The translations under genes and the position numbers were made by a program. A stretch of DNA of 64,000 nucleotides from an uncultured Gammaproteobacteria bacterium. GTDB taxonomy: Bacteria; Patescibacteriota; Microgenomatia; UBA1406; GWC2-37-13. The DNA lies in contig CAZJWN010000001.1 in NCBI GenBank assembly GCA_964550105.1, forward strand, positions 1,413 through 65,412. Direction: 5' to 3'. The stretch's first letter is position 1. Each line of letters begins with the position of its first letter. The notes under the pieces were generated by a model, which saw only the letters and a list, made by a program, of their open reading frames with translations, did not search any database and was not told the DNA's origin. Shown here in pieces: positions 2,573 to 34,676 of this stretch.

Positions 2573-2575
2573 AGT

Positions 2576-4561: not shown

Positions 4562-5785
4562 ATGAACCGCCTCTCGTCCAGCACAAAACAGTATCTTGTC
4601 GTCATCTGTATAACGATTGTTTCTGTTCTGATTGTTTATACACCTTTTGTCCTGCACCTCAAAGAGGTGTATTTTCTAGACCTCAAAGACTCGGGGATGC
4701 AGCAAATCTACAAAAACTGGGATGGCCCAAACTATGTACTCAACGCAATCACTCAGTATGATCCGGAGGAGATAGGAAAGAGAGCTTTTTTGGAACGGCC
4801 AAACGAGTACTACGCAGCACATTTTCCACTCTATAGTTGGCTTATCGCTCCCTTGGGTCAAATACTCGGATATTTTCCCGCAGCCCTCGTGGTGAATCTA
4901 CTCAGCAATGTTCTATTGAATATTGTGTTTTTCAACTGGATAAAGCGATATTCGAAACATCCGCTGTGGCTCACTTTTGTACTTACGATTTTTCCACCTC
5001 GGTATTGGATCGTCCGAACTGTCATCTCGCCAGAGATGTTACTGGGCGCATTGATCCTCACCGCATTGTGGAAATGGGAGCGTGGCTACTATTTACGCGC
5101 TGGCATACTCGCCTTACTCGCGGTCACTGCGAAGTTCCAAGCCGTCGTATTGATGCCTGTTTTTGCGACGACTTCACTCGTGCAAAGCCTTCCCTCGCTG
5201 TGTGCAGCTACGTGTGATTGGCGTGCGCAGTTTCATACACGTTTTAGGACCAGTATGCTCATAGCCATCATTGCTCCTCTCATTGGATACGTACTGGTTG
5301 CGAGCTTCTATCAATCAACTCTCGGGGACTTCAACGCATATTTTCGAGCACAGGCAACGGTAGGTATGGGTGCATCATATCCGTTTGCCATGTTTAACTA
5401 CGCAGCGAGATGGATACAGACTGGATGGCTCGAGCATACCGCGCTTTATTTCATAGGTATGTTTGTACTGATTGGGAAACTATGGACTCTGACAGTGGGA
5501 CGGAAAATCATCGGTCAATCACCCAGGGGCAAGGATATGGTACATCCGATATATCTTGTCTTTGCGATTTGCTACACAGCCCTCCTGTCTCTCATCCCCC
5601 AAGTTGATATCATGAGACTTGCCATGCCTCTCGCACCGATTTTCATCATGGCTTTTCATGATTTCTTTGAGTCCAAACCATTTCGTATAGGACTCATCCT
5701 CTCGCTCCCGATGCTGTATCTGTATGTGCTAAACTTCATCATGACCAATCAAGCCCCTATCAGTGACTGGGCTCTCTTCAGATAA
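4562..5785 (+). CDS. Polytopic membrane protein, GT-C-like (PIG-V/GT76-like mannosyltransferase motif)
   Basis: 407 aa, multi-TM. The first loop carries YKNWDGPNYVLNAITQYD, resembling the WDxxxY...GY motif of PIG-V-type GT-C enzymes. The family call is tentative. Confidence 0.6.
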   Translation: MNRLSSSTKQYLVVICITIVSVLIVYTPFVLHLKEVYFLDLKDSGMQQIYKNWDGPNYVLNAITQYDPEEIGKRAFLERPNEYYAAHFPLYSWLIAPLGQILGYFPAALVVNLLSNVLLNIVFFNWIKRYSKHPLWLTFVLTIFPPRYWIVRTVISPEMLLGALILTALWKWERGYYLRAGILALLAVTAKFQAVVLMPVFATTSLVQSLPSLCAATCDWRAQFHTRFRTSMLIAIIAPLIGYVLVASFYQSTLGDFNAYFRAQATVGMGASYPFAMFNYAARWIQTGWLEHTALYFIGMFVLIGKLWTLTVGRKIIGQSPRGKDMVHPIYLVFAICYTALLSLIPQVDIMRLAMPLAPIFIMAFHDFFESKPFRIGLILSLPMLYLYVLNFIMTNQAPISDWALFR

Positions 5786-5794
5786 TAAAAACCT

Positions 5795-7360
5795 ATGAAA
5801 AAAAAGTATTTCTTTTGGGGTTTTATACTTTTGCTACTCGTGGGCACCTTCTTTCTGCGCATCTATCGTATTCCCGAATATCTCACATTCTTATCAGACC
5901 AGGGTCGTGACGCAATCATCCTCAAACGCATAGTGACCCTTGAAAAGTTGGTTTTTGTTGGTCCTACCACCTCTATAGGCAATGTGTTTACTGGTCCATT
6001 TTTCTATTACCTGATGGCTCCATTTATGCTTTTGTGGAGACTTGATCCAGCAGGTCCTGCGTACGGCATAGCTATCATCAATACCATAGGACTATTTCTC
6101 ACCTTTATATTCGTATATAAAAATTTTGGTAAGGTCGTGTCGCTCATATTTTTTGTGCTGGCGGGCTTTTCAATGAATCAGATTTTGCAATCACGCTTTA
6201 GCTGGAATCCAAACCCGGTGAGCGTGTTTAGTTTTATCATACTTATTTGTTGGTACTACTCGATAAAGAGTGGGAAACTAAAATGGTTTATCGCAACAGG
6301 ACTGGTGATGGGTTTCTGCCTCCAGTTACACTATGTTAGTGTACTTCTTTTGCTTCCCATAGGTTTACTTACGATCTGGCATATCCTGAGAATCTATATT
6401 TTAAAAACTAAGCAGACTGGCAATGGGCTAGTGATGTACGTACGCAATATTTTGATCGGTATATTTGCTGGGATCCTTTCGTTCCTACCTCTCATCTTGT
6501 TTGATGTAAAGAATAATTTCATCAATCTTCAGACGCTCTTGCGGGCCTCCTCAACTGGCGAAATCCAAGCAAAGAACATCGCCTACCTTGACCGATTCAA
6601 TGACACTATCAGAAGTTTGTGGACAAATGGATTCGAATTTGATTGGAACACAGAAGTCTCGCTCATCGCGCTCTGTGGCTTGTCACTAGCGGCATTTACT
6701 TTTGCCCGAATGAGATTGACAGGTGCAAAAAGAATGTTTGTGTATGCCTGTGTCATCACGGTGTGTGCATTCGTTCCCTTGTTTGCACTACTTGAGACTG
6801 GTCGTCATGTGCACTACTACAATCATCTCTATCTCGCCTTATACTTTCTAGTTAGTCTCGTGATGGCATGGGGTATCCATCAAATCACATCAAAACTAGT
6901 GTCCCTTGGCATACCGCGGCTTGCGGCGAACCTACTGCTCGTGGGTGTTTTGGTTTTCTGCTTGACCGCGTATGTAGTATCGAACTCATCAAAACTGACT
7001 TACCTGACTGAGCCGCATAGACCGTATACTCAGTTGGGCGATGCACAAGCTGTAGCGAAATATATCATCGATCAGGGGCCCGCTGCGGAGTACCAAGTAG
7101 TAGGATTGCCGTATTATGAGACTGAGGGTCACTTCAGATACTATCTTGAGTATTATGGCAAAAGACCAATGCCCGCTGATGCACTTGGCGATCCAACCGA
7201 AATCTATGTGATCTGTCATGAAGAAACGATAAAGGCATGCCAAATAGCCGGAAACCCTCAATGGCAGCTGGCTGATTTTCAAAATAGACACCAATCATGG
7301 AAACAGGTATCGCAAAAGCGAGTGACAAATGTTTGGATTGTAAAAATAGTGCATGAGTAA
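5795..7360 (+). CDS. Polytopic GT-C-like glycosyltransferase (family A: DxxRD ... GP motif)
   Basis: 521 aa, at least 10 predicted TM segments plus a C-terminal soluble domain. The N-terminal loop LSDQGRDAIILKRI...VGPTTSIGNVFTGPFFYY is shared with the ORFs at 8234 and 29045. Confidence 0.65.
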   Translation: MKKKYFFWGFILLLLVGTFFLRIYRIPEYLTFLSDQGRDAIILKRIVTLEKLVFVGPTTSIGNVFTGPFFYYLMAPFMLLWRLDPAGPAYGIAIINTIGLFLTFIFVYKNFGKVVSLIFFVLAGFSMNQILQSRFSWNPNPVSVFSFIILICWYYSIKSGKLKWFIATGLVMGFCLQLHYVSVLLLLPIGLLTIWHILRIYILKTKQTGNGLVMYVRNILIGIFAGILSFLPLILFDVKNNFINLQTLLRASSTGEIQAKNIAYLDRFNDTIRSLWTNGFEFDWNTEVSLIALCGLSLAAFTFARMRLTGAKRMFVYACVITVCAFVPLFALLETGRHVHYYNHLYLALYFLVSLVMAWGIHQITSKLVSLGIPRLAANLLLVGVLVFCLTAYVVSNSSKLTYLTEPHRPYTQLGDAQAVAKYIIDQGPAAEYQVVGLPYYETEGHFRYYLEYYGKRPMPADALGDPTEIYVICHEETIKACQIAGNPQWQLADFQNRHQSWKQVSQKRVTNVWIVKIVHE

Positions 7361-7447
7361 ATGGTAACTCGATTTTCTATACATGAAGATATACAATACA
7401 AAAACCATCCACCATCCTTATCATATTCGGTTATTCACCGTACTCAC

Positions 7448-8212
7448 ATGAACTCAATTTCTCTAATCATCCCTTGCTACAACGAGGTTTCCAACTTCCA
7501 AAAGGGAGTGCTTGATAAGATTGGTAACTATGTCCGTGATGATGAGCGGTTTATCGAGGTCCTCATCGTAGATGATGGATCTACTGACGAATCTCGAGAC
7601 GTGATCACAAGTAAATATCTCAAGCAATTCCCCAAATTTCGACTCGTCTGTTGCTCCCATCGAGGAAAAGCACCAACGGTCATCTCAGGCATACAAGAAG
7701 CAAAGGGCAAATATGTATTCTTTACAGATGCTGACCTTGCAACACCTATAGAGGAGGTCGAAAAACTTATCGAAGTGCAGAAGTCGACTGGTACACCACT
7801 AGTCATCGGGTCTCGAGGGGCTGTCCGCCCTGATGCGCCGATCACTCGCAAGATCATGGCGCTAGGTATGATCATGGTCCGCACACTTATCGTCGGGTTG
7901 CCCGGCATCAAAGATACCCAGTGTGGATTCAAGTTGTTTGATCGAACTGTCGCACTCTCAGTCATCGATAAACTGGTAGTTTTCAAGCGAAAGACAGTCG
8001 GTCGACAGGCGTCAGTGTCTGCCATATTCGATCTTGAATTCCTCTTTATCGCAAATCGTTTGAGGTATAAGATCGTTGAGGTACCGGTATTTTGGCGGCA
8101 TGTTGAGACTCGTCGCGTGAGCTTTTTCAAAGATGTATATGAGTCATTGACTGATATGGCCCGACTGAAATGGTATGAGATGAAAGGGAGATATCAAATA
8201 ACGAACAAATAG
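7448..8212 (+). CDS. GT2 polyprenyl-phosphate hexosyltransferase (Alg5/Dpm1/GtrB-like lipid-sugar donor synthase)
   Basis: SLIIPCYNE, VDDGSTDES, FTDADL, DTQCGFKLF, FDLEFLF...VEVPVFW. No C-terminal TM segments. ATG at 7448 is preferred; the ORF is open from 7361. Confidence 0.85.
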   Translation: MNSISLIIPCYNEVSNFQKGVLDKIGNYVRDDERFIEVLIVDDGSTDESRDVITSKYLKQFPKFRLVCCSHRGKAPTVISGIQEAKGKYVFFTDADLATPIEEVEKLIEVQKSTGTPLVIGSRGAVRPDAPITRKIMALGMIMVRTLIVGLPGIKDTQCGFKLFDRTVALSVIDKLVVFKRKTVGRQASVSAIFDLEFLFIANRLRYKIVEVPVFWRHVETRRVSFFKDVYESLTDMARLKWYEMKGRYQITNK

Positions 8213-8233
8213 CATGATTCCATTTATTGCACT

Positions 8234-9778
8234 ATGACAAAAAAGCTGGACTTTTATCGATTATTTAGGTTGTTTCTGTACTTTGGAATAATCACGAATC
8301 TCTTGCTGTCTTTGTGGCTATTAACCTATCAGGATGTCATCTTTCAAACAGACATAGCCAGAGATTTTCTACTGATCGAAGATATAGTCTACAGCAATCA
8401 CCTCACCCTCCTTGGTCCAAGATCAGGTGGTATCCCTGGAGTTTTTCATGGTCCTTTGTGGCTATATCTGCAAGTCCCAGCTTTCCTACTTGCACACGGA
8501 GACCCTGCAAAAATGAGCATTTTCTGGTTTCTGCTGTGCTTGACTGGACTTTACATTGCATATCGAGTAACCAAAAAGCTTTTCGGACCTGAGGTCGCCA
8601 TTATTTCAGCCTTTCTCATCACTTGCACTATCCCCGCTACTTTACTTAGCCTTTTCAATCCATATGGTGCAGTTATTTTGGCTCCCCTTTTCTTTTATTT
8701 TTTTTATCAATATATCCAAGAAGGAGCCATGAAACATTTGATGATAGCGATTTTGTTGCTTGGCGTGATTATACAATTTCAAATGGCCTGGGGAGTGCCT
8801 ATACTAGTTCTCACACTTCCAATCGTTATAAGGCGCGTTGTGAAGACTCAAAAATGGTTGAGTTTGAGCGCATATACTGTGCTTGTCATACCGCTTGTAA
8901 CATACATCATCTTCGAGCTCCGTCACTCATTTCTCCAGCTCAGTTCTGTTCTCCATCATGTGACCGGTGGTAATAAAGATTATGGTGTAACTTCTGTTTC
9001 GTCATTTATTATATCTCGTCTAACTGGAATGTTTATAGAAGGTTGGTATCTACTCAGCAACATTCATATTTTGGTCAGTGTCATCATAGTTTGTGTTGTT
9101 GTATGGGTTGTATATAAATCATGGTACTTTTTTCCGTCAAAAACAAAAAGTTTCTATTTTTTGTTCAGTTATTTCTATTTTGGGTTCTGGGTCACCTCAT
9201 TTTTCTTTAGAGGAATTATCTGGGGTTATTATTATTGGCCTTTTCTCCACTTGACCACCATAGCACTAGGCATCTTGTGTACTCAAAAATACAAATGGCT
9301 TCTTAATATGATAGTCGTATTCATTGGTCTCTCATATTTATACTCGAATGTGAAGTATGTAAAGGACTTTGCAGATTTTTCTAACAAAGATCAATCCTCC
9401 TGGAGATTCAATGAGCAGGTGTCACAAATGGTGTTTAACGATGGTGAAAATACTTTCGGGTATTACGTATTTACTCCAGATCAATATGGATTTGCGATCA
9501 AATATGCAATGAATTATGTCCAGCGGCTGACTCCAATATCAACTTCAACTCCATACAAAAAACAAAGAGTTACTTATCTATTTATTGCCCCAGCGCCCGA
9601 CTATAGACCTGAGCTGAACGGAGATTGGTGGAAATCGGATCAGGTCAAAATCAAGCGTTCTGCTGATTACACACGAACGTATCCGAACGGCTTGAAGGTC
9701 GAAAGGTACAATTTAAGCCAGGATGAGATTGCTGTTCATTCTGATCCAAATCTTATTCAAGATCTACACTTTAGGTGA
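8234..9778 (+). CDS. Polytopic GT-C-like glycosyltransferase (family A paralog)
   Basis: 514 aa, many TM segments. Loop QTDIARDFLLIEDI...LLGPRSGGIPGVFHGPLWLY parallels the 5795 ORF. C-terminal soluble domain of about 130 aa. Confidence 0.6.
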   Translation: MTKKLDFYRLFRLFLYFGIITNLLLSLWLLTYQDVIFQTDIARDFLLIEDIVYSNHLTLLGPRSGGIPGVFHGPLWLYLQVPAFLLAHGDPAKMSIFWFLLCLTGLYIAYRVTKKLFGPEVAIISAFLITCTIPATLLSLFNPYGAVILAPLFFYFFYQYIQEGAMKHLMIAILLLGVIIQFQMAWGVPILVLTLPIVIRRVVKTQKWLSLSAYTVLVIPLVTYIIFELRHSFLQLSSVLHHVTGGNKDYGVTSVSSFIISRLTGMFIEGWYLLSNIHILVSVIIVCVVVWVVYKSWYFFPSKTKSFYFLFSYFYFGFWVTSFFFRGIIWGYYYWPFLHLTTIALGILCTQKYKWLLNMIVVFIGLSYLYSNVKYVKDFADFSNKDQSSWRFNEQVSQMVFNDGENTFGYYVFTPDQYGFAIKYAMNYVQRLTPISTSTPYKKQRVTYLFIAPAPDYRPELNGDWWKSDQVKIKRSADYTRTYPNGLKVERYNLSQDEIAVHSDPNLIQDLHFR

Positions 9779-11253
9779 GGTATACTTTCCAAATGCACTC
9801 GCTCAAGCGCCATCTTCCGCTCTTTCTCTTTATTCTCATCATAGGAGGGCTTTGGATGCGAGCCATCATCATGTCAACTGTACCTTTCTTCGATTGGGAT
9901 GAGTCTATATATGCGCAAGTCGCTCGAGAATGGCTGCGCGATCCTGGATTTACCCTCCACTATAACCTCGCGATTTGGCTTGAGAAACCACCTCTCTTAT
10001 TTGCCGTCATTGGCACACTCTTTTACCTATTTGGTACGAGTGAGTTCATCGCTCGTCTGCCATCGGTAATCGCTGCCATTTGTTGTGTGATATTGGTTTT
10101 CCAGAGTGTCAAGCACTTTACTAGAAGCCCATTGGCTCAGATGGCTGGAGTGCTGATGTTTGCGGCTACTCCTTTTTTTATCGATCGAGCTAGTATCGTC
10201 AATGTGGATATATTTCTTACTTTAGGTTGGTTGCTCTATGTCTGCGATAACACATTTCGCACTCGGCTTATCGGTACCATCATAGGTGTTTGGACAAAAT
10301 CTTTTCTTGGGTTTATCCCTCTCTGTGTAGATGTTGCTCTCTCAATTTACCATCGATCACTTACCAAGACAAAAGTGCGCGAATGGTTGGTGATCTTATC
10401 AATATCACTGATATGGCACCTCATCATGATAGTCCAATATCCGAGCCAATTCATATCCTCGCATATCAAAGACCACATGATCTCGCGCATCACTACTCCG
10501 ATAGAGCTTCATTTTGGAGGGAAGTTCTTCTATTTTGAAAAGTTATGGGCAAATTACCACTTACTTATAGTCATCGCTGGGATCGGTATCGTCATTTGGA
10601 TCGTCACCATCCTCAGACGTCGTGATTCAAAACAGATTGATATTTTCTTCCTCTTGCCGCTTGTATATCTCGCTCTGCTCACCATCAGTAGATCAAAACT
10701 ATCTTGGTACATCGTACCTATTCTCCCTTTTGTAGCCATTTGGGTTGTTTACTCGATTTCTCATATCCCCCGCAAGTCACTGCAAACGCTCTGCTATTTT
10801 GCACTGATAGTGTGGTCGGGGTATATGTTTTTACAGCAAACAATAGGCTTTACAGTGCCTAAAAATGTGATTCCTCAACAAGTCGCCCTAGCGAGATGTC
10901 AAAAGGGTATGCCTCCATTTACTAGAGTTGCATATCTCATTGCGCCAACCCAACGCAAAGATATGCAGGTCATCGAAGCGGCACAAGTTGCTATTGCGAG
11001 CTCGTTTATCTATGGATCTGCTCCTACATTTGTCTTTTATTTAGATAAGCCAGTTACATTCTTTTATAAACCAGAACAATTTCTAAATGAAGTAAGTAAA
11101 TATGACGCATACGCCATGCATATCGATGACCTCAAACTTTTAAGCAAAAATGCACAAGATGCATTTGCATCCAACTCGACCGTGATCACTGAGTGTCAGC
11201 GAGGTGAATGGATACTCTACAGCCGAGCTACAGCCTCACAAAAGCAGATGTAG
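9775..11253 (+). CDS. PMT_2/ArnT-like (GT39/GT83-type) GT-C glycosyltransferase
   Basis: 492 aa. First extracytoplasmic loop PFFDWDESIYAQVAREW carries the DE catalytic motif typical of PMT/ArnT enzymes. The GTG start overlaps the upstream TGA (GTGA); an alternative ATG lies at 9793. Confidence 0.75.
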   Translation: MRYTFQMHSLKRHLPLFLFILIIGGLWMRAIIMSTVPFFDWDESIYAQVAREWLRDPGFTLHYNLAIWLEKPPLLFAVIGTLFYLFGTSEFIARLPSVIAAICCVILVFQSVKHFTRSPLAQMAGVLMFAATPFFIDRASIVNVDIFLTLGWLLYVCDNTFRTRLIGTIIGVWTKSFLGFIPLCVDVALSIYHRSLTKTKVREWLVILSISLIWHLIMIVQYPSQFISSHIKDHMISRITTPIELHFGGKFFYFEKLWANYHLLIVIAGIGIVIWIVTILRRRDSKQIDIFFLLPLVYLALLTISRSKLSWYIVPILPFVAIWVVYSISHIPRKSLQTLCYFALIVWSGYMFLQQTIGFTVPKNVIPQQVALARCQKGMPPFTRVAYLIAPTQRKDMQVIEAAQVAIASSFIYGSAPTFVFYLDKPVTFFYKPEQFLNEVSKYDAYAMHIDDLKLLSKNAQDAFASNSTVITECQRGEWILYSRATASQKQM

Positions 11254-11283
11254 TGTTGGGTAAATAAGCTATAATCAAGATGT

Positions 11284-12852
11284 ATGTTTTCATTCACTGA
11301 TACATTCGTTCAGATTAAGCGTCGCATGTCGTGGAAATTTGCTCTTTTTCTGATATCTGTCAGCTCACTCTACTTCTTTACAAGACTGCTCAATATCCTC
11401 GCTCTTCCCATATTTGTGGATGAAGGCATATATGTTAACTGGGCACGGATCGCCGCTAATGATCCAAACTGGAGATTTATTTCACTGCTTGATGGAAAAC
11501 AGGTGCTACAAACGTGGGGAACAATCCCCTTTGTTAAATTATTTCCAGATAATTTGCTCTTCGCAGGTCGACTTTTCTCAGTATCAAGTGGGTTTATAGG
11601 AATGATTGGGATGATGAGTTTGAGTGGCTATCTATGGGGTAAACGGGCTGTTGCGATTGCCGCAATCATATATCTATTTTCGCCATTTTTTCTTTTCTAC
11701 GATCGTTTGGCTCTTGTAGATTCTGCTGTAAATGCTAGTGTCATTTGGTTGATGTTTGTATCCATATTACTAGTACGAATGAAACGATTGGATGTTGCAG
11801 TGCTTTTTGGTGCTATTGCTGGGATCGGTATGCTAGCAAAATCAAGCCTGTTCATGTTTATCGGACTGTCCTGCACAGCAATAGTGGTCTTTCAACATGG
11901 GCAAACTATTTTAAACAAAGTAGCCCATGTATGGCGCAATAAAAAAGTATTATTTGATTATATTTTCTTGTATCTTGCCGGTCTGTTCTTAGCCTTATCA
12001 ATATATCTATCACAACGATTCTTTTCGCCTTTCTTTCATAACATAGCTCAGAAAAACTTGATGTTCATTTTGACTTTTCGTGAATGGTTAGCAAATCCGT
12101 TTCAGCTAGTCATGAATAACATTCAAATAGTACCCCAGTATATTTTTTGGGAAAGCGGATGGATCATCCCTGTGCTGGGTCTCGTTGGGATATATATGTT
12201 ATGGAGGAATCATGAACCTCTCGGACACTACCTTGTCCTATGGATCATCTCCCCCTTCATCATCATAGTAATGTTTAACAAGGTGGTGTACCCGCGATAC
12301 TTGATCTTTTTTGCAGGATTACTCAGTATTGCAGCTATTTATGCTCTCAATTCTTTCTCTACAAACACCCGACGGATATTGTTACTAATCACTTCAGTTG
12401 TACTTCTGTTTATCTGCTTTCCCCAATGGTTCTCGGTAACTAGCATTTCTTTGCCACCTATTGATCGTGGGCAATATATTGAGGGTGCGTCCGCAGTGTG
12501 GGGTACTCCAGAACTTATGCAAATAATTCGTTCATCTACTACAGATGGTAAATCTGCGCTTGTCCTTGCTGAGGGAGATTTTGGGTTGATCGCAGATGTA
12601 TTGCGTGCGTACGTTAAACGGGAAGATCGTATCGATGTGCGTGGTCTTTGGCCACTCAATGAGTCAGATATCTTAACAGCCCAACAAGAAACAGTGGACA
12701 AACATGTATTCGTTGTATTTCCCCATCGAAATGATTTTCCTATCCACTGGCAACAGGATTTGATTGAGGAGGTCAAAGTATTTGGCAAACCCAACGGTAG
12801 TCCAGATAAGGTGTATCTTTTCCGGTTACGTCCTCCAGTTAGCCCTCGATGA
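11284..12852 (+). CDS. PMT_2/ArnT-like GT-C glycosyltransferase
   Basis: 522 aa, multi-TM. First loop LPIFVDEGIYVNWARIA (DE motif). C-terminal soluble domain. Confidence 0.7.
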   Translation: MFSFTDTFVQIKRRMSWKFALFLISVSSLYFFTRLLNILALPIFVDEGIYVNWARIAANDPNWRFISLLDGKQVLQTWGTIPFVKLFPDNLLFAGRLFSVSSGFIGMIGMMSLSGYLWGKRAVAIAAIIYLFSPFFLFYDRLALVDSAVNASVIWLMFVSILLVRMKRLDVAVLFGAIAGIGMLAKSSLFMFIGLSCTAIVVFQHGQTILNKVAHVWRNKKVLFDYIFLYLAGLFLALSIYLSQRFFSPFFHNIAQKNLMFILTFREWLANPFQLVMNNIQIVPQYIFWESGWIIPVLGLVGIYMLWRNHEPLGHYLVLWIISPFIIIVMFNKVVYPRYLIFFAGLLSIAAIYALNSFSTNTRRILLLITSVVLLFICFPQWFSVTSISLPPIDRGQYIEGASAVWGTPELMQIIRSSTTDGKSALVLAEGDFGLIADVLRAYVKREDRIDVRGLWPLNESDILTAQQETVDKHVFVVFPHRNDFPIHWQQDLIEEVKVFGKPNGSPDKVYLFRLRPPVSPR

Positions 12853-12858
12853 TCCATC

Positions 12859-15641: not shown

Positions 15642-15667
15642 AAAGCCTGTACCGGAGGACCGTGCGA

Positions 15668-16393: not shown

Positions 16394-16464
16394 AGTAGGA
16401 TTATACCTTGAAATCCCCCTCATCGACTAGATCAGGATCAATAAATGGTATAATCGAAATTGAT

Positions 16465-17391: not shown

Positions 17392-17412
17392 GCTCTGCAC
17401 TACCGTTTATCT

Positions 17413-19065: not shown

Positions 19066-19233
19066 ATTCTTTACTCTGATCCGCATTGCAGTGGCTGTGT
19101 GCATGTCAACTTTTATTGCCCAATCAAATGATTCAAAAATCAATTCTGACAATATCATTTACTCTTCAGAAAAATCAGATCAGCAGATATACCTCATCAT
19201 CCCGGCGAATAAAGTTTTTCCTGTACCTGAATC

Positions 19234-20841: not shown

Positions 20842-21130
20842 TCCAAAGATCTGCGTCTTCGTTTGATATCGATCTAGTAAACCCTGACGATGGGATACAA
20901 CTGACACTATCTCCATATCTAAGATCTTTCGTTCGTAAATACACATACCCTACCAAAGGGGATACTTTCGCATAGATAAGATCTGAGTGCTTTTTTGACG
21001 CGACCTGTAAGCGATATTTAACAGATTTAGTTAGGTTTCTTTTGATACAATCAAGATATCTCTAAAGGTGTTTTGGACATTTGATTGATATTTGTTTGGG
21101 TCTTTGTAATTGGAATTCGAACTTTCAACT

Positions 21131-23583: not shown

Positions 23584-23584
23584 C

Positions 23585-27356: not shown

Positions 27357-27379
27357 ATGCTATAACCGCGTCCTACCTA

Positions 27380-29029
27380 TTACATTTGCTTGAAGAGGTC
27401 TTTATTGTCTAGGCGAAGATACACATCCTCATGGACACTGATCCCTCTCACTACACTTTTACACTCGACCTTTGCCTCAACACAATTCACATATTTTCCT
27501 TTCATCCAGTCGAGGAAAAATGCGCCAAACTCATTTGCGGGTGTTTGAAAAATTGATGACTCGTGATGAAAAATGATCATCTTTGGATTTGCGTTTTCCA
27601 TCTCGTACAAAAAATCATTCTTCAAGAAGTCATTCTCACGAAACTGGGGAAGGAGTGATGGATACTTGCCGGCAGTTTGCCCATTTTTTACAAAAAATGC
27701 ATGATGTGCTTCAAATGGTCCTATCCAATACGTATCACTTGGCTCAATCCAGCGAGTAGCGAAATCTGCAATATCAGAAATATTGGCCGTTGGAGGTAAC
27801 ATGCCCATATATCGCTGGTAGCGTATGCTAAGAGTATTTTGAAACATAAACGCGAGTGAAAACGCAAAATACATAAGCAAGAAGAAACACACGATACTCC
27901 GCCAAAATTTGACAAAGAATGATTTTGTATCGAGATCGTACAGAAGCTGATAAAGTGCAAATGCAGCACTTATCGTACCCATGATGATAAATAGGCCCAT
28001 TTGATAATCTGTTTGTTTCATATCGACAAACTGACTACTACGAGGAGCTGAAAAAGATAGTAACGCCAAGTAGATCAGTCCAAATAATGGCTTTTTGTAG
28101 CACAGATACAACGCAGTCATCAGGGTACCAAGCGCAACCAGTCGAGTGATCGGACTATAGAATGACAGATACGCAAGCTGACTCAATAGGGGTAGGTATG
28201 ACTGCCAAAAGTTATTGATGACTGTCAAGGCAAATCGAAGTGGATTGAAAGAGCTTGTGACTGCTGAATAGTTGGTTATGTTGATATAGAGCTTAGTATT
28301 GTAGGTAAAGTTCGCAAACCAAAAATCGTTTGCTGTTCCTGTTATCAGTAAGTAAAGCGCATAGAGGACGTATGGTGCACTGACTACAATCATGAGTAAC
28401 AATACTTCTCGCATGCGATGAGCACTATGTACGGTCCTGTGCATGTGCATGTTGAGAGTGAGTAACCCAATCCATGCATACATGATGAGACCGATATATA
28501 CATATGATAATGACGAAAAAATCATGAGTGATATAAGCCAGGTGATGCCGATTCGTATCCACCTGACGTGTGTCGGGTAAAAAGTTTCGAGCAGTAAAAG
28601 CCAAATCGCTCCCGAAAAGAACCAAACCGCCAGAGAGTCACCAAGAAATAGATGAAGCCAAAAATACATTGCGGCCGAAGCATACAATACCGCCCATAGT
28701 GCATATATGAGTGCAAACCTAGGATATTTTCGAATAATCAAAAGTCCAAGAAGCACTACTCCAACAGCTTGGATCAAGCCCCACCCAATGCGAAATAAGA
28801 TGTAGTTTTGCTTTGTGAAGAGTAAGATTGCGGATGCGAGATACCATGCAAAAGGCATGTGATGATCGAAAAAATCACGATAGGGCAACTTGCCGAGCGT
28901 GATCGCTCGTCCCCCAAGAATATTAATAAACTCGTCGGGGTATGACACATATGTTGAATTGAGGAAAAATACAAATGCAGCTATACCCAGGAGGGCAATG
29001 CCCAACTTATTTAAAGTGTTAAGTTTCAT
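27380..29029 (-). CDS. Polytopic GT-C-like membrane protein (family C paralog)
   Basis: 549 aa. Loop YPDEFINILGGRAITLGKLPYRDFFDHHMPFAWYL. C-terminal soluble domain of about 130 aa. Confidence 0.6.
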   Translation of the reverse strand: MKLNTLNKLGIALLGIAAFVFFLNSTYVSYPDEFINILGGRAITLGKLPYRDFFDHHMPFAWYLASAILLFTKQNYILFRIGWGLIQAVGVVLLGLLIIRKYPRFALIYALWAVLYASAAMYFWLHLFLGDSLAVWFFSGAIWLLLLETFYPTHVRWIRIGITWLISLMIFSSLSYVYIGLIMYAWIGLLTLNMHMHRTVHSAHRMREVLLLMIVVSAPYVLYALYLLITGTANDFWFANFTYNTKLYINITNYSAVTSSFNPLRFALTVINNFWQSYLPLLSQLAYLSFYSPITRLVALGTLMTALYLCYKKPLFGLIYLALLSFSAPRSSQFVDMKQTDYQMGLFIIMGTISAAFALYQLLYDLDTKSFFVKFWRSIVCFFLLMYFAFSLAFMFQNTLSIRYQRYMGMLPPTANISDIADFATRWIEPSDTYWIGPFEAHHAFFVKNGQTAGKYPSLLPQFRENDFLKNDFLYEMENANPKMIIFHHESSIFQTPANEFGAFFLDWMKGKYVNCVEAKVECKSVVRGISVHEDVYLRLDNKDLFKQM

Positions 29030-29044
29030 AAATTTATACTCCTT

Positions 29045-30328
29045 CTAATCGTTCGGTTTTATTTTCTTATGTACAGAGTACCATTGATACAGATAGGAAT
29101 CCATTTTTCCTTCTTCCCATTCGATCACTTGGCCAGCTTTGACCCGTGACAACATGTCGTCTTTCTGCTTTTGGAAACTATTATTCACCTGAGAGACAAG
29201 CTGTGGTCTGACATTGACATATGCATTTATCAGAACAAAAATCCCAAAAAATGCAAGACAAATTCTCTGATGGGGATGGGGTATATGACGATATAGTAGA
29301 CTGCCCACGTACCAGAGCATTGAAACTATGATTGGAAATTGGAAAAGGTAATAATACTCCGAGATTGTTCCCCCATAAATCGAGTACCCTATTGAAGGGA
29401 TTCCTATGAGAAATATCGCTAGGAATACAATTCTTTTTGTCTGTTCAGTAGATCTGTGAACATATGCCAAAATACCGAACAAGATCACAAATAGGTATTT
29501 TAATATCCAGCCAAACTTGCTTGATATGGTTTTTTCGATCATGATCAAGTTATATGGCAGTCTATGTAGGAAAAACTGCAGATGAAATCCGATAAAGTAA
29601 TTATTCCAAAAGTCTTTGTATCTGTTTGCATCGGAGTTGTGATCTATGATTTCTGCATATATGTTGCCACTCATAAAAACTATCATCACTACAAGCCCTA
29701 GAAGTAGATGAAAGAATGCCACCCTTGTCCTTCCAAAAAATATATATAGTGCAAAGAGCAGTGGTAAATAAAAAATAAAAGAAAAGTGGGAATGAAAATA
29801 TAGCCCAATAAGAGCTCCCAACCATGCTAAATAATATGGTTTTTGCGTACTCATATACCTCATAGCTACATAAAATATCCATAGTCCCACAGCAATTCCC
29901 ATAGTGACATTCCACGGATTGCGGCTTATCTCAGCTAGATATTCATTGAAGCAATACATGTACGTTGCAAATAGTGCAGCTTTGTTTCCAAATAGTTTTT
30001 TGAAAACTACTGCCGCTGATACTAAGTTCACTATGTTGATAACAATTGCATAGTAATGAGCAGCTATAGGATCACGATCAGTCAGAAAATAAAATGGGGC
30101 AAGTGAATAATAATGCAGCACACCAATATGCATGTGACCTATACCCGTTCGAGGACCTTGAAAGTGCAGCTTGCCATCAAGAATATCATTGACTTTTTGT
30201 GCATCTCGGGCTTGGTCCCATCCAAACTCATTCAGTCGGTGGGGTGAGTCATAGAATCGGATGAAAAGTGTCGCAATTATCATCAAGGCAATGGCTATGT
30301 TGACTTTTGAAGAGAACAGTCTTTTCAT
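29045..30328 (-). CDS. Polytopic GT-C-like glycosyltransferase (family A paralog)
   Basis: Loop FGWDQARDAQKVNDILDGKLHFQGPRTGIGHMHIGVLHYY matches the 5795 and 8234 family. ATG at 30328 (MKRLFSSKVNIAIAL...) is preferred; the ORF is open to 30406. Confidence 0.6.
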   Translation of the reverse strand: MKRLFSSKVNIAIALMIIATLFIRFYDSPHRLNEFGWDQARDAQKVNDILDGKLHFQGPRTGIGHMHIGVLHYYSLAPFYFLTDRDPIAAHYYAIVINIVNLVSAAVVFKKLFGNKAALFATYMYCFNEYLAEISRNPWNVTMGIAVGLWIFYVAMRYMSTQKPYYLAWLGALIGLYFHSHFSFIFYLPLLFALYIFFGRTRVAFFHLLLGLVVMIVFMSGNIYAEIIDHNSDANRYKDFWNNYFIGFHLQFFLHRLPYNLIMIEKTISSKFGWILKYLFVILFGILAYVHRSTEQTKRIVFLAIFLIGIPSIGYSIYGGTISEYYYLFQFPIIVSMLWYVGSLLYRHIPHPHQRICLAFFGIFVLINAYVNVRPQLVSQVNNSFQKQKDDMLSRVKAGQVIEWEEGKMDSYLYQWYSVHKKIKPND

Positions 30329-30434
30329 CGACAAGCGAATGTTCAACTTGGGTCTCTGTGCGACATGCAAATGCATGATGGAATGATACATGAATTTTAT
30401 TGACAAACAAATTTATCGCTGCTGCGAACCCACA

Positions 30435-31652
30435 TTATCTGGATTTTCTTTTCCAGGCGGGTGAGACTTTGCGCAAAAAAACTATAGCTATCAGTATGAG
30501 ATTGATGCTGAAAGTAATGAGCATGATTGTCCTTTTGAGCCCAATATCTCCTCCCTGCCCCCACTCTCCTCCTACAACATATGGATGATAGCTCACGAGC
30601 AAGCCAATGTAGAACACTTGCCAGAGCTTCACCAATTCATACAGAAATGGAGTGAATACAAATAGATTGAGGATATACCACGAGTGTAATTCACCAGAGC
30701 CGGCAACGTATGCAATAAGTCCGACTACCCCAAAAAGGGCACAATAGGCAAGATTTTTTTGTGAAAATAGTTTGGTTAATATTTTTTGCTTCGTATTTGA
30801 GAATCGTAATGAAGGAAAAATATATTTTCCAATGAGCAGACCAGAGGGGATTACCATGAGGGGTAAGGTGAAGTATTTAACAAAACCCGATGCAATCATG
30901 AGTATGAGTGCGCGCCACAGATAGCCTCGATGGATACAGTACATACCGATGATCCCAAGGCCCACTGCCACAAAGTCATTGTGCGTACTCATGAGCCCCT
31001 CGACGAGCACCAAAGGAGCAGTGGCAAAAAAGATTGCTGCAGCTGGCTTGATTTTATAAATGCACCAGACTGATAATGCATAAAGGCAAACATGCATACT
31101 CTTAAACAGAAAGAATGCAAGAGAAAATTTGCCCAGACTTAAAAATGACGGGATGAAGCTGATTAACAAATATATCGGCCCGTAAGGATATGTTCGATGT
31201 ATCCAGTGCATAAATCGCAAGTTTTCATCGACAGGAAAATCCATAGCCCGCATGAGATAGGGATTTTTCCCATAAAAAGTAAATATCTTGGCATCAAAGA
31301 TGTAATTGAAGAGATCTCGAGAAAGCGCAGGGTATGAGAAAATACCCGCAATGACTCCAATGATGACAGTGATCATCATCACCTTCTTCAGAGTGAGTGT
31401 GGGAACCTTTCCGATAATCAATAGGTGTAAAGCTGTCAGAAGCGCAATACAGGACAAGTATAGCTGTGCTGACAATGGCCGATCAAAAAGACCTACGGCA
31501 ATCATCCGCTCTCGGAAGATTGCCCAATTGGGGTGATTATAGAGTGTAAAATTCGGATCAATCATCACCCACGTCCACGCAGCACAGGCCAATACAGAAA
31601 TAGCAAACAGGGCAAAAAGTACTTTGTATGTTTGCAAATATCTTGAGGTCAT
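30435..31652 (-). CDS. Polytopic membrane protein, GT87/DUF2029-like GT-C candidate
   Basis: 405 aa, about 11 TM segments. Loop SRDLFNYIFDAKIFTFYGKNPY resembles the D-x3-Y...G-x-NPY loop of polyprenyl-phosphate-mannose-dependent mannosyltransferases. Tentative call. Confidence 0.5.
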   Translation of the reverse strand: MTSRYLQTYKVLFALFAISVLACAAWTWVMIDPNFTLYNHPNWAIFRERMIAVGLFDRPLSAQLYLSCIALLTALHLLIIGKVPTLTLKKVMMITVIIGVIAGIFSYPALSRDLFNYIFDAKIFTFYGKNPYLMRAMDFPVDENLRFMHWIHRTYPYGPIYLLISFIPSFLSLGKFSLAFFLFKSMHVCLYALSVWCIYKIKPAAAIFFATAPLVLVEGLMSTHNDFVAVGLGIIGMYCIHRGYLWRALILMIASGFVKYFTLPLMVIPSGLLIGKYIFPSLRFSNTKQKILTKLFSQKNLAYCALFGVVGLIAYVAGSGELHSWYILNLFVFTPFLYELVKLWQVFYIGLLVSYHPYVVGGEWGQGGDIGLKRTIMLITFSINLILIAIVFLRKVSPAWKRKSR

Positions 31653-32020
31653 AAATAGTCACTTTCATTATACTGCTTGTCCCTTATTTCGCACAGATGT
31701 GTTTCTTAGAGTATTTGTACCCACTTCTCACAAACAAAATCGAATGCAGATTGAACTGTTCTGCTAAAGTAGAGCATTCTTTGCGAGAAAATCAGTATTG
31801 AACTACTACGAGATATTCAGGAGGTCATAAGGCGTGATATGGCGATAGGTCCTCTTGCATATATGAGTGCGCAGCGGCAAACCTATCAAAGGAGAGGTGT
31901 GATCTATCTGCATCGGTCATCGAATATCCAAACACGTTGACCTGTGTACAAAATTCTGGTAGGAATACTCCAAGACCTCCATATCATATAGTGACGGGAT
32001 TGAGTTATAATCTACCTCGC

Positions 32021-32797
32021 ATGATCACTGTCATCATCAACTCGCACAACAATGAGGATCTCATCTCAGACTGTATTGCATCAGCGAGATTACTTGCTGA
32101 AAAAGTAATCGTGGTCGATATGCAAAGTACTGATAGGACCATAGAGATCGCTCGACACCTAGGTGCAAAAGTGCACTCTTTTCCACCATCGAGATATGTT
32201 GAACCAGCACGTATGTTTGGAGTCGATCAGGCTTCTACTGAGTGGGTATTCATCCTTGATACGGATGAGCGAATCACAACAACGCTTGCTGCAGAGATCA
32301 AAGATGCTTTAGCTGGAACTACGAACAAGCATCCGACACATTTCAGGATACCCCGTCAGAATATGTTTGCGCATACTACCTGGCTGAAGCACGGAGGCTG
32401 GTGGCCAGACCACCAGGTCAGACTGATCAAAAAAAATGCGCTGCGCAGCTGGCCTGCACGCATACACTCAACTCCAGACATAACTGGATCATCTGCTACG
32501 CTGAACTCACCCCTCATTCACTATTTTCATACTGATGTGTCTGGCATGGTCAAAAAAACGATTATATTCGAAGATGTTGAGTCAGACCTTTTATATTCTG
32601 CAGGTCGCAAAGTGAGTGTGTTGACTTTTTTCCGCAAATATTGTGGTGAGCTCATTCGCCGACTTATTTTGAAACAAGGCTTCAGAGATGGAGTATACGG
32701 ATGGCTTGAGTCGATATATCAAGCCTACTCCAAGACCATCACCTGGCTCTATGTGTACGAGAAAAAGTATATTACTAGTAGTACTCTAAACAAATGA
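32021..32797 (+). CDS. GT2 family glycosyltransferase (WWPDHQ-type; paralog of 16465-17391)
   Basis: ITVIINSHNNE, VVDMQSTD, FILDTDE, GGWWPDHQVRLIKK. ATG at 32021 is preferred; TTG at 31937 gives the longest ORF. Confidence 0.8.
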   Translation: MITVIINSHNNEDLISDCIASARLLAEKVIVVDMQSTDRTIEIARHLGAKVHSFPPSRYVEPARMFGVDQASTEWVFILDTDERITTTLAAEIKDALAGTTNKHPTHFRIPRQNMFAHTTWLKHGGWWPDHQVRLIKKNALRSWPARIHSTPDITGSSATLNSPLIHYFHTDVSGMVKKTIIFEDVESDLLYSAGRKVSVLTFFRKYCGELIRRLILKQGFRDGVYGWLESIYQAYSKTITWLYVYEKKYITSSTLNK

Positions 32798-33870
32798 AAA
32801 AAATACTTTTGTGGAATCCGTACCTAGACACCTGTGGTGGTGGTGAGCGCCACATGATACAAATATGTCAGTACTACATATCAAAAGGGTATGAGCTGAC
32901 CATCAGTTGGGAAAAAGATATCACTAAAGATCTTGAGCGTAAGCTCAGACTCAACCTACCTCCTCAAATCACCTGGATCCCCAAACTCGCTACATATTCA
33001 CTGTTTCAGAAGATGCTACTTCTGCGGAAATATGACATATTGCTCTATGCGACCGATGGATCGTACTTCTTCTCAACAGCAAAGAAAACTATCTGTTTTG
33101 CTATGGTCCCCAATCGACAGCTTTATCAGATGGATCTCATAAATCGTCTCAAGACACGCGGGTGGCGATGGATAGCCAATTCGAAATTCACTCAAGGAAA
33201 TCTGAAGCGGTATGGCGTCTCAGCACATATCGTCTATCCGATCATCGACGTTCCCACAGACTGTCTCCCTCTCTCCAAGCCAGTCACTGGAACTGCGTTA
33301 ACACTGGTGTCTGTTGGTAGATTCTTTAGACATCTTCATTCAAAAAGGCATGATGTTGCTATCGCATGGTTTGTACATTTCCTCGATACCTATCCCCAAT
33401 ACTCTGGCAGCAAACTGATTCTAGTGGGGGGTCTAAAGCAAGAAGACAAAAAATACTACGATTCGCTGAAAAAGCTTGCAGTCGAGCACCCGCATATCAT
33501 ATTTAAGCCAAATATCTCCTACGAGGAACTGCATCATATTTATCGCACTGGGGATTTTTATCTTCATTTTGCAGGTTGGGGTATCAACGAGAAATCCCAT
33601 CCAGAACGTACAGAGCACCTCGGGATCACTCCACTTGAAGCGATGTCGTATGGTTGCATACCACTGTGCTATGCCAGTGGTGGCATACCTGAGATAGTCA
33701 AAGACGGGGTGACAGGGCACACGTTCATCAGTCGTGATGAACTCTCACAAAAACTAGTCAAGCTCAGTCGCGATCCTACACAACAAGAAAAAATGAGGAC
33801 TGAGGGACTCAAGCTACTCAACAATATGTTCACTCGTGACGCATTCAATCATTCGCTGAGTCAACTATGA
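32794..33870 (+). CDS. GT4 (group 1, GT-B) glycosyltransferase
   Basis: 358 aa. C-terminal EHLGITPLEAMSYGCIPLCYASGGIPEIVKDGVTG signature. ATGA start overlaps the upstream stop. Confidence 0.85.
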   Translation: MKKILLWNPYLDTCGGGERHMIQICQYYISKGYELTISWEKDITKDLERKLRLNLPPQITWIPKLATYSLFQKMLLLRKYDILLYATDGSYFFSTAKKTICFAMVPNRQLYQMDLINRLKTRGWRWIANSKFTQGNLKRYGVSAHIVYPIIDVPTDCLPLSKPVTGTALTLVSVGRFFRHLHSKRHDVAIAWFVHFLDTYPQYSGSKLILVGGLKQEDKKYYDSLKKLAVEHPHIIFKPNISYEELHHIYRTGDFYLHFAGWGINEKSHPERTEHLGITPLEAMSYGCIPLCYASGGIPEIVKDGVTGHTFISRDELSQKLVKLSRDPTQQEKMRTEGLKLLNNMFTRDAFNHSLSQL

Positions 33871-34676
33871 TTTCTGTCATCATCCCCGTATATAAGCAAA
33901 AGGAATTGTTTCTGACGAACCTCGCGCACAATCTACCTTTTTTTTCAGGACACGAAGTCATCATAGTGAACGATGATCCTGAGACTCAAATCAAGAATGA
34001 AGTTGCAAAATTGTTCACCGAACATAGCTGGCCAGACTCTAGCTACAGTCTGGTTGAACACTCAAAGAACCAGGGTTTTTCTGCCAGTGTCAACGATGGT
34101 GTTGCTCGAGCGGCTGGAGACTATATACTCCTCCTCAATACCGATGTGGTCCTGCATGACCAGAGTTGGGAGCGGGCTGAGTCATATCTTCAGTCTCATC
34201 CTCAGATATTTGCAGTTGGTTTTGCTCAACATGAGCGAAACGGTGCCCTAGTAGGCCGCAACGCTATATATTTCAAATCAGGATTGTTTCATCACAAAGC
34301 ACTTTCTTTCAGCACCGAGACAACTGTGCTATCGACCGCATGGGCTGAAGGTGGGTCAAGTCTCTTTAGAAAAAGTATGTGGCGATTATTGGGAGGGTTT
34401 GATATTGCGTATTCTCCTTTTTATTGGGAAGATGTAGATCTGGGATATCGGGCACGGCTCCGTGGATGGGAGAGCGTCTTTGATCCAGCTATCAGAGTAG
34501 ATCATCAGCATGGTGGGACTACGACTGCACACTTTCACACAGATCAAGTCAAATCTATCGCCTACCAACATCAGCTATATTTCACCAAAAAATTTGCAAA
34601 AGGTGCACAGAAGGTCGCCTATTATCTCTATCTGCTCAAGCGGATGCTTGGTCCAAGAAGCGGAACGTCTACTTGA
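33867..34676 (+). CDS. GT2 family glycosyltransferase (WbbL-like)
   Basis: ISVIIPVYK, VNDDPE, NQGFSASVNDG, LLLNTDV, FYWEDVDLGYRARLRGW. Confidence 0.85.
   Translation: MISVIIPVYKQKELFLTNLAHNLPFFSGHEVIIVNDDPETQIKNEVAKLFTEHSWPDSSYSLVEHSKNQGFSASVNDGVARAAGDYILLLNTDVVLHDQSWERAESYLQSHPQIFAVGFAQHERNGALVGRNAIYFKSGLFHHKALSFSTETTVLSTAWAEGGSSLFRKSMWRLLGGFDIAYSPFYWEDVDLGYRARLRGWESVFDPAIRVDHQHGGTTTAHFHTDQVKSIAYQHQLYFTKKFAKGAQKVAYYLYLLKRMLGPRSGTST

Follow-up and report, generated by a model that had tools for sequence, protein, structure and literature searches.

Multi-component transmembrane glycosylation pairs a family 2 glycosyltransferase (GT2) with a polytopic transferase of the GT-C fold, a general logic described in two papers (PMC8035078, PMC11127046). 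Known examples are the three-component systems GtrA/GtrB/Gtr*, CsbB-GtcA-YfhO and ArnC-ArnE/F-ArnT. In eukaryotes, the dolichol-linked N-glycan is assembled by ALG glycosyltransferases (GTs), RFT1, DPM1/ALG5, ALG3/9/12/6/8/10 and the oligosaccharyltransferase (OST); PMC13503287 covers the assembly by ALG3, ALG9 and ALG12 in the lumen of the endoplasmic reticulum (ER). Mycobacteria and corynebacteria use many different GT-C enzymes (EmbA/B/C, AftA-D, MptA/B/C, PimE) for arabinogalactan, lipomannan (LM) and lipoarabinomannan (LAM), which act there as a relay outside the membrane on one polymer. In mycobacteria these genes are spread over several loci, and Wzx/Wzy loci normally have one or two polytopic enzymes. 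Here we analysed a window of 64,000 nucleotides (contig CAZJWN010000001.1, positions 1,413 to 65,412, assembly GCA_964550105.1) that has 13 polytopic GT-C-like genes in one 30-kb island at 4562-34676. We propose with moderate confidence that a lipid-linked glycan flipped by Wzx is extended, branched or decorated outside the membrane by these GT-C enzymes, which would use the polyprenyl-phosphate sugar of a Dpm1-like enzyme.

The open reading frame (ORF) map of the window showed 22 genes in an unbroken series from 4562 to 34676, in exactly the composition that a sequence-only reading of this stretch had given. Thirteen encode polytopic proteins. Interleaved with them are one Dpm1/Alg5-like GT2, four further GT2 enzymes, a GT4, a TagA/WecG-like GT26, a Wzx flippase and an AT3 acyltransferase, and the Pfam and NCBIfam scans agreed with these assignments. 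Adjacent genes overlap by 4-40 nt or are spaced by less than 110 nt, apart from three larger intergenic gaps of 168, 289 and 368 nt; this packing of overlapping or nearly abutting genes is operon-like. Shorter starts at 7448, 16465, 21131, 32021 and 30328 each have an ATG, and the first four give lengths closer to those of the homologues than the longest ORFs do. No comparable polytopic proteins are encoded elsewhere in the 64 kb, and a tRNA scan and an Rfam scan of the window had no matches. The grouping of the 13 genes is not due to chance, since the island recurs in many related genomes.

Like the three-component systems, the island pairs a Dpm1/GtrB/ArnC-like GT2 with GT-C enzymes that are expected to transfer outside the membrane. 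Unlike them, it has 13 GT-C genes for one clear synthase instead of a 1:1:1 ratio, and it adds a complete cytoplasmic GT set and Wzx. With the Wzx/Wzy loci for O-antigens, capsules and teichuronic acids it shares Wzx, a TagA/WecG-type enzyme, GT2, GT4 and AT3 in one operon-like cluster, and it differs from them in that no recognisable Wzy, Wzz or ligase family was found. The Pfam and NCBIfam scans of the window ORFs returned no phosphoglycosyltransferase, Wzz, Wzm/Wzt or Wzy_C/ligase family, in line with the sequence-only reading, which had seen no primer, chain-length regulator, exporter or ligase. Its statement that the locus matches no standard pathway went too far: the parts fit Wzx-type lipid-linked assembly together with extracytoplasmic GT-C glycosylation. 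Every component comes from a superfamily that is already known, so the machinery as such is not of a new kind. The unusual feature is the number of GT-C enzymes, with 11-15 such genes in one ancient collinear island of genomes of about 1 Mb. Also unusual are the GT-C families that lack a Pfam model and the turnover of single GT-C genes among close relatives.

The polytopic proteins, named here by the lower coordinate of their ORF, had been described as multi-transmembrane (TM) proteins of 400-580 aa. They have 405-584 aa and 5-10 hydrophobic segments each in a Kyte-Doolittle scan. An acidic motif soon after the first TM segment (TM1), which had been noticed in most of them, was read from the sequences of all 13. 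It occurs as DE in 9775 (within DWDE), 11284, 17413, 19234, 22030 and 27380, as DD in 23585, as HD in 12859 and as WDG in 4562. Invariant across the homologues are D54 of 4562, D45 and R51 of 12859, D32/E33 of 27380 and D41/E42 of 22030. The acidic loop presumably sits on the extracytoplasmic side. A C-terminal non-hydrophobic domain of about 95-230 aa, such as had also been noticed in most, was found by the same scan in nine of the 13 and is missing from 4562, 12859, 29045 and 30435.

Seven of the proteins were linked to the PMT_2 family (PF13231, gathering cutoff 26.1 bits). Four scored at or above the cutoff: 9775 (9775-11253, plus strand, 492 aa; 41.3 bits, E 2e-10), which is ArnT-like and also had a weak NCBIfam match to ArnT, 17413 (17413-19065, plus strand, 550 aa; 38.1 bits), 11284 (11284-12852, plus strand, 522 aa; 30.4 bits) and 29045 (29045-30406, minus strand, 453 aa, or 427 aa from the ATG at 30328; 26.6 bits). 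Slightly below were 8234 (8234-9778, plus strand, 514 aa; 25.3 bits) and 19234 (19234-20841, plus strand, 535 aa; 25.1 bits). The seventh, 5795 (5795-7360, plus strand, 521 aa), was below the cutoff both for PMT_2 (17.7 bits) and for PMT (20.4 bits, cutoff 22.7 bits). In the Pfam scans of the island proteins, 4562, 12859, 22030, 23585, 27380 and 30435 had no PMT_2 match, no PMT domain exceeded its cutoff and no protein had a MIR domain. Homologues of 17413 in Roizmanbacteria are annotated as GT39 family or ArnT-like. An all-against-all comparison of family profiles with hhalign connected the 17413 profile to 5795, 8234, 9775, 11284, 19234 and 29045 at 93% or more, with 98% over 395 columns for 11284, 96% for 5795 and 93% for 8234. 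The families of 5795, 8234 and 29045 were linked to one another at 99%, and the negative controls Wzx and AT3 reached at most 2% in the matrix.

Searches of the PDB sequences with the family profiles of 12859, 23585 and 27380 gave nothing useful, so 12859 and 23585 were resolved by fold comparison only. Protein 12859 (12859-14391, plus strand, 510 aa) belongs to a family in which most homologues, among 120 listed of 293 found, carry the PTPS_related domain (PF10131). Its AlphaFold2 (AF2) model is a helical bundle with a pLDDT of 94.7 and a pTM of 0.94. With Foldseek against the PDB, the top 22 matches were all GT-C enzymes, nearly all at probability 1.00; AftD was the best, and STT3, ArnT, PglB, AglB, Emb (EmbB) and Pmt4 were also among them. 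Protein 23585 (23585-25339, minus strand, 584 aa) has 21 homologues from Roizmanbacteria, Woesebacteria and Patescibacteria, none of them with a Pfam domain, and the family has so far appeared mainly in records of the Microgenomates within the candidate phyla radiation (CPR). Its AF2 model, also a helical bundle (pLDDT 81, pTM 0.85), had only GT-C enzymes among its top seven PDB matches, which included STT3 (E 3e-6), ALG12, DPY19, ArnT and AftA, all at probability 1.00 and with TM scores of 0.35-0.52.

A transporter reading of these two Pfam-less proteins was rejected, because the major facilitator superfamily (MFS), G-protein-coupled receptors (GPCR) and LeuT appeared only at probabilities of 0.33 or less and TM scores of about 0.1, below all GT-C matches. 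For 23585, an oligosaccharyltransferase reading was considered, as STT3 was its best match, and found no support: the sequence beyond the last TM helix has no motif of the WWDYG type, and the sole WWDYG-like stretch falls within the TM region. The deposited NCBI-derived record of 23585 (P0041) has 525 aa. The homologues back the 584-aa form with TM1 and a RARDD motif, and the true start therefore probably lies upstream of the deposited one.

The remaining proteins were linked to GT-C families by sequence profiles. For 4562 (4562-5785, plus strand, 407 aa, with NWDGPNY after TM1) no Pfam or NCBIfam match was found. Its family has 209 representative homologues, and the family profile matched GPI mannosyltransferase 1 (PIG-M) in the PDB over about 230 residues (E 3e-4). 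PMT_2 was matched by 7 of 56 family members, others matching EpsG, GT87, DUF2079 or Mannosyl_trans4, and hhalign linked 4562 to the 17413 family at 84.5% versus 0.5% or less for the controls; 4562 is therefore a probable GT-C. Protein 30435 (30435-31652, minus strand, 405 aa) is MptA/GT87-like. It matched TIGR03459 (alpha-1,6-mannopyranosyltransferase A) with 36.6 bits (E 2.4e-9), far below the equivalog cutoff of 439 bits, and its homologues carry PF26314 (MptA_B_family); by these scores it is a relative of MptA at the level of the superfamily only.

The two weakest cases are 22030 (22030-23583, plus strand, 517 aa), which has no Pfam or NCBIfam match, and 27380 (27380-29029, minus strand, 549 aa), which has no match in Pfam, NCBIfam or the PDB sequences. 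Their families are collinear homologues of each other, at 62-76% with hhalign and over positions 36-458 of the hidden Markov model with hmmsearch. They share the motif [YF]xDE[FY]xN...G.xxY.D.F..[HR]MP with an invariant D-E. The motif of 27380, PDEF..G.LPYRDFFDHHMP, is also found in a distant homologue (locus L039) that exceeds the PMT_2 cutoff, and the 22030 profile gave weak in-register matches to PTPS_related members. Both are probably divergent GT-C enzymes. The earlier count of 13 GT-C-like enzymes thus stood for 11, which have direct, profile or fold evidence, and is probable for 22030 and 27380, which are weakly linked. None of the 13 looks like a transporter: 12859 and 23585 matched only GT-C enzymes at high probability, and for nine of the 11 proteins without a fold model GT-C families were reached by sequence or profile comparison. 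At least two of the GT-C families, 23585 and 22030/27380, have no Pfam model, and they are three when 4562 is counted.

The seven PMT_2 matches, one of them joined by a match to PMT, could also point to protein O-glycosylation. The PMT_2-type enzymes would then act like GT39 or TMTC-like O-mannosyltransferases, each modifying different proteins that emerge from the membrane to be secreted or displayed at the surface (pilins, S-layer proteins, adhesins). The polyprenyl-phosphate hexose would come from the Dpm1-like GT2, for which a dolichol-phosphate mannose synthase was the best match in the PDB. The C-terminal soluble domain of nine proteins could bind such acceptors, and genes for secreted proteins with three Lamin Tail Domains, a CAP domain or a C39-like peptidase lie nearby (43716-48082). 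Bacterial PMT homologues are widespread and little studied, according to PMC11727336. PMT_2, however, also covers the ArnT-type transferases of lipids and glycans, so a match to it is uninformative on the acceptor, and the sole PMT match is below its cutoff (20.4 versus 22.7 bits). The folds of 12859 and 23585 are closer to STT3, ArnT, AftD, AftA and ALG12 than to PMT1/2/4, and Wzx, the TagA-like enzyme, GT4, the extra GT2 enzymes and AT3 are left unexplained. We therefore consider protein O-glycosylation as the function of the island unlikely.

The 13 enzymes are only distantly related to each other. With BLASTP, 17413 and its paralogue 19234 were the sole pair at 35% identity (E 2e-103), 5795, 8234 and 29045 were distantly related, and most other pairs were not detectable. 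The idea that the 13 genes arose by recent tandem duplication was rejected because only one pair reaches 35% identity. Their orthologues in other genomes are 26-90% identical. The 13 GT-C enzymes are thus old divergent families, each with its own orthologues, and most likely carry out different steps.

The conservation of the island was followed in related contigs, which were recovered with an alignment query; a single-protein query gave none, and the proteins of the window are singletons at 90% identity. The nearest homologues are in Candidatus Roizmanbacteria (Microgenomates, CPR) and others in Woesebacteria and Patescibacteria, which identifies the source genome, on protein similarity, as Roizmanbacteria-like. 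Close relatives with 66-81% identity keep the gene order and have further GT-C genes. Related loci were labelled with L-numbers (for example L010, CAZIUF010000002.1, and L016, JBGSBR010000015.1); six of them (L012, L014, L016, L019, L023, L027) have 8-11 polytopic GT-C-like genes each over about 21 kb on a common backbone. In Woesebacteria and other Microgenomates a smaller core was found, with MptA-like, PMT_2, GT2, GT4, GT2 and PMT_2 genes, adjoining the Rce1-like, rpoD, dnaG and LytR_C genes.

The complete Roizmanbacteria chromosome CP066689.1 (1,103,789 bp) has a collinear island from fpg to rpoD, with the same flanks as in the window, so that the expected linkage was kept and the genes were not scattered. 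This island has about 30 kb, about 2.7% of the genome, and 11 polytopic GT-C-like genes. Overall, the orthologues have 26-59% protein identity: 31% for 4562, 28% for 5795, 59% for the Dpm1-like GT2 at the matching position, 44% for 11284, 39% for 12859, 52% for Wzx, 40% for the GT2 at 16408, 46% for the GT2 at 21110, 31% for 23585 and 38% for 30435. Further orthologues are those of 9775, 17413 and the GT2-GT4-GT2 block. The island is thus old and has kept its collinear order throughout the lineage. We regard it as the predicted locus for a cell-envelope glycan, between fpg and rpoD, in a CPR bacterium similar to Candidatus Roizmanbacteria.

Within this backbone, GT-C genes are gained and lost. 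Close relatives have extra genes for a 567-aa PMT-like protein and a 607-630-aa paralogue of 23585 (L001, L003, L010, L013), and these fall exactly at the two longest gaps of the window's plus-strand block, 19065-19234 (168 nt) and 20841-21131 (289 nt), which suggests deletions in the lineage of the window or insertions in the relatives. Such turnover among close relatives may mean that strains differ in their surface structure. It also bears on the possibility that there is no single pathway and that the fpg-rpoD region is a hotspot of independent GT2 and GT-C modules. Each module would add one variable side-branch to an envelope polymer, allowing strain-level variation for evasion of phage or host recognition, comparable to the serotype-converting gtr clusters. 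Conserved GT2/GT-C pairs are indeed found, the 16408 type with the 17413 type and the 21110 type with the 23585, 27380 or 22030 type. The G+C content is 0.37-0.39 between about 22 and 30 kb of the window (the block from 22030 to 29045) and 0.44-0.47 in the flanks, which resembles the low-GC variable parts of O-antigen clusters. A transposase remnant is present in a related island: at 1-2367 of L001/L002, the AT3 gene is apparently split by a transposase-like ORF (weak Transposase_mut match), a sign of mobile-element activity within the island. Against the hotspot stands the backbone order kept from end to end in CP066689.1 in spite of the 26-59% identity, which argues for a long-standing integrated unit and not for a random collection. 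In addition, the paired GT2 enzymes of the 16408 and 21110 types are not Dpm1/GtrB-like, and the island has a single clear polyprenyl-phosphate sugar synthase. A mere collection of modules is therefore, in our view, very improbable.

This synthase candidate is the Dpm1/Alg5/GtrB-like GT2 at 7361-8212 on the plus strand (likely start 7448, 254 aa), probably a polyprenyl-phosphate hexose synthase. It matched Glycos_transf_2 (E 6e-23) and had as its best PDB match the Pyrococcus dolichol-phosphate mannose synthase (DPMS) 5mlz (E 2e-14), followed by weaker matches to ArnC and GtrB (sll0501). NCBIfam gave weak matches to ArnC and PpgS, and a DTQCGFKLF motif is present. The GT-C enzymes presumably use a polyprenyl-phosphate or polyprenyl-diphosphate sugar as the donor, for which the Dpm1-like synthase in the locus is circumstantial evidence.

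For the cytoplasmic steps, the Wzx/MOP-family flippase at 14352-15641 (plus strand) matched Polysacc_synt_3 (E 3e-44) and the NCBIfam MOP flippase model (E 4e-35). The GT26 at 15668-16423 (minus strand) is WecG/TagA/TarA-like (Glyco_tran_WecG E 2e-44, TarA E 5e-40). Between Wzx, in some loci with a TagA-like gene intervening, and a 17413-like GT-C, most loci covering the region have a GT2 of the type found here at 16408-17391 (plus strand, likely start 16465; Glycos_transf_2 E 2.5e-5), which has a C-terminal hydrophobic helix. The GT2 at 21110-22033 (plus strand, likely start 21131) is rhamnosyltransferase-like (Glyco_tranf_2_3 E 6.5e-8, TIGR01556 E 5e-10) and its counterparts in related loci nearly always adjoin a GT-C of the 23585, 27380 or 22030 type. 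At the right end, the GT2 at 31937-32797 (plus strand, likely start 32021; Glycos_transf_2 E 9e-12) opens the conserved GT2-GT4-GT2 core and has 54-57% identical orthologues across the Microgenomates. It is paralogue-like to the 16408 protein, and both represent a GT2 type that is distinct from the Dpm1-like one and has no PDB relatives. The core continues with a GT4 of the GT-B fold at 32794-33870 (Glycos_transf_1 E 6e-21) and a GT2 at 33867-34676 (Glyco_tranf_2_3 E 5e-15), both on the plus strand and classed as cytoplasmic glycosyltransferases. The AT3 acyltransferase at 25320-27356 (minus strand, 678 aa) matched Acyl_transf_3 over residues 12-419 (E 7.5e-25), has a C-terminal extension and is a probable glycan O-acetyltransferase.

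From these enzyme classes we infer the following order of steps. A WecA/TagO-type enzyme encoded elsewhere would prime undecaprenyl phosphate, and the TagA-like and GT2/GT4 enzymes would assemble a short lipid-linked glycan at the cytoplasmic face, which Wzx would flip. The Dpm1-like GT2 would load polyprenyl phosphate with hexose. Outside the membrane, GT-C enzymes that differ in specificity would extend, branch or decorate the glycan from polyprenyl-phosphate sugars; their acceptors may also include surface proteins or glycolipids. Finally, AT3 would O-acetylate the product. The three rival explanations discussed here differ from this pathway mainly in the acceptor and in how far the enzymes are integrated into one pathway.

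Several observations weigh against the proposed pathway. A priming phosphoglycosyltransferase was found neither in the window, which covers 64 kb of a source contig of at least 111 kb and in which Bac_transf and Glycos_transf_4 had no matches, nor in the related loci. TagA/WecG enzymes act on undecaprenyl-diphosphate-linked GlcNAc (Und-PP-GlcNAc) made by WecA/TagO, which is commonly encoded elsewhere; for clusters of this kind the missing primer is therefore not anomalous. Small single-TM ORFs of related islands were considered as the primer and rejected, one being a methyltransferase and one a helix-turn-helix (HTH) protein. Unlike in the three-component systems, no GtrA-type small flippase was found among the scanned window ORFs and the intergenic gaps leave no room for one; the 368-bp divergent gap at 31652-32021 has no GtrA-like small ORF. 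Such a flippase could be encoded elsewhere in the genome. The synthase at 7448 has no TM domain, unlike GtrB and the Pyrococcus DPMS. The TagA-like gene is kept in close relatives but missing from L009, L016, L019, L023 and L027, so the lipid-linked primer may differ there, or the enzymes on the two sides of the membrane may contribute to separate products. In addition, 4562 could be a Wzy-type polymerase and not a GT-C that depends on a sugar-monophosphate lipid, since EpsG was matched by 2 of the 56 members of its family.

The structural matches to AftD, AftA and EmbB and the one MptA-like protein bring the island close to the mycobacterial and corynebacterial system. It could accordingly make a lipoglycan of the LM/LAM or arabinogalactan type, a glycolipid or wall-linked polymer built wholly outside the membrane by a GT-C relay such as that of MptA/MptB/MptC, Emb, Aft and PimE, with the Wzx-flipped linker only as an anchor. 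Protein 30435 and its homologues are MptA/B-like, AftD is the best match of 12859, AftA is among those of 23585, and the 4562 profile matches PIG-M. A rhamnosyltransferase-like enzyme (21110) and a TagA-like enzyme occur together as in wall linkage units, and a LytR_C protein is a conserved neighbour. All these matches, however, are at the superfamily level, with the MptA model at 36.6 bits against a cutoff of 439, and the Pfam scans of the window found no decaprenyl-phosphate arabinose genes, phosphatidylinositol mannosyltransferases or LytR-CpsA-Psr (LCP) catalytic domain. Unlike the mycobacterial system, the island has its 13 GT-C genes in one place of 30 kb, no orthology and scores far below the equivalog cutoffs, Wzx instead of an ABC transporter as the flippase, and as its host a CPR bacterium of about 1 Mb. 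The mechanism overlaps with the pathway proposed above and the product is the main difference; such a lipoglycan seems improbable to us.

The layout is also like that of the dolichol-linked N-glycan pathway, with cytoplasmic GT-A/GT-B enzymes, a candidate flippase of the MOP family, a Dpm1/Alg5-like synthase and GT-C enzymes on the far side; two of the best structural matches of 23585 are ALG12 and STT3. The analogy is limited to the layout. No oligosaccharyltransferase signature was identified in the island, and unlike in the ER system there is no sign of an en-bloc transfer to protein.

The right flank of the island is kept across the Microgenomates. In the window (34669-40315) and in L005, L006, L009, L023 and L032 it consists of the genes for a Rce1-like CAAX/CPBP intramembrane protease, rpoD, dnaG and a LytR_C protein. 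The protease (34669-35322, minus strand; PF02517 E 9e-7) adjoins both the island and rpoD in L005, L007, L009, L023 and L032. In the LytR_C protein (38642-40315, 557 aa), the first 460 or so residues gave no family match. On the left, genes for a MacB-type permease, an ABC ATPase and a HlyD-like adaptor at 1361-4586 separate the island from fpg in the window; CP066689.1 has its 4562-like gene immediately after fpg. If the HlyD-like gene (minus strand) and 4562 (plus strand) are read as their longest ORFs, their 5' ends share 25 nt, and one of the two starts is therefore probably further in. Beyond the right flank, the region 43716-49195 encodes a series of probable secreted proteins: one is Peptidase_C39_2-like, one of 593 aa contains three Lamin Tail Domains, and one has a CAP domain. 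After these comes the gene for a sugar-1-phosphate nucleotidyltransferase (NTP_transferase, E 4e-62). It is possible that the secreted proteins are glycosylation targets and that the nucleotidyltransferase supplies a donor.

In related islands, a small protein of 170-275 aa, which has no Pfam match and no more than a single predicted TM segment, repeatedly adjoins a polytopic GT-C-like protein of 546-579 aa (L012 17983-18810, L014 15879-16400, L016 7619-8344, L023 12437-13042, L027 5538-6125, L028 2547-3140). In L023 the polytopic partner is weakly PTPS_related-like. A counterpart of the small protein was not found in the window. The records of L010, L027, L017, L022, L025 and L016 are titled 'uncultured Gammaproteobacteria' or 'Weeksellaceae bacterium', and their loci are clearly Roizmanbacteria/Microgenomates-like. 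With loci up to 81% identical to the window and syntenic with it, the taxonomic labels of these records look wrong.

In the literature we found no description of a GT-C expansion in CPR, Patescibacteria or Roizmanbacteria and no paper on this island, in keeping with the sequence-only reading, which had named it as its best candidate for an undescribed system. What did come up was that several annotations as 'dolichol-phosphate mannosyltransferase' are mentioned in passing for Peregrinibacteria and Saccharibacteria. An earlier survey of the protein families of the CPR reported that the membrane families enriched in Microgenomates are mostly hypothetical and that the CPR-enriched families with more than four TM helices are perhaps involved in transport (PMC6744442). 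The multi-TM hypothetical families enriched in Microgenomates might include glycosyltransferases such as those described here.

Going beyond the pathway proposed for this locus, we tentatively suggest a wider picture, which we rate as possible and not as probable. The main surface polymer of the Microgenomates may be made by an extracytoplasmic line of at least ten dedicated GT-C enzymes on a Wzx-flipped primer, a bacterial counterpart of the assembly of the N-glycan precursor in the ER lumen or of mycobacterial arabinan and mannan. It would be encoded in one ancient fpg-rpoD island that includes GT-C families missing from the databases (23585; 22030/27380), and its strain-variable product would serve host attachment or the protection of wall-exposed ultra-small cells.

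The CPR make up a large share of bacterial diversity; they are mostly uncultured, and almost nothing has been learned about their envelopes and the surfaces by which they contact their hosts. With about 2.7% of a 1.1-Mb genome and its collinearity across the whole class, the island must encode something central. With it, two or three GT-C families at the least are added that lack a Pfam model, and it offers a testable entry to the CPR surface by glycan chemistry, glycoproteomics and heterologous expression. Taken together, the predicted enzymes of the island point to a cell-surface glycan that is unusually elaborate, and has not been described before, in a bacterium with a tiny genome.

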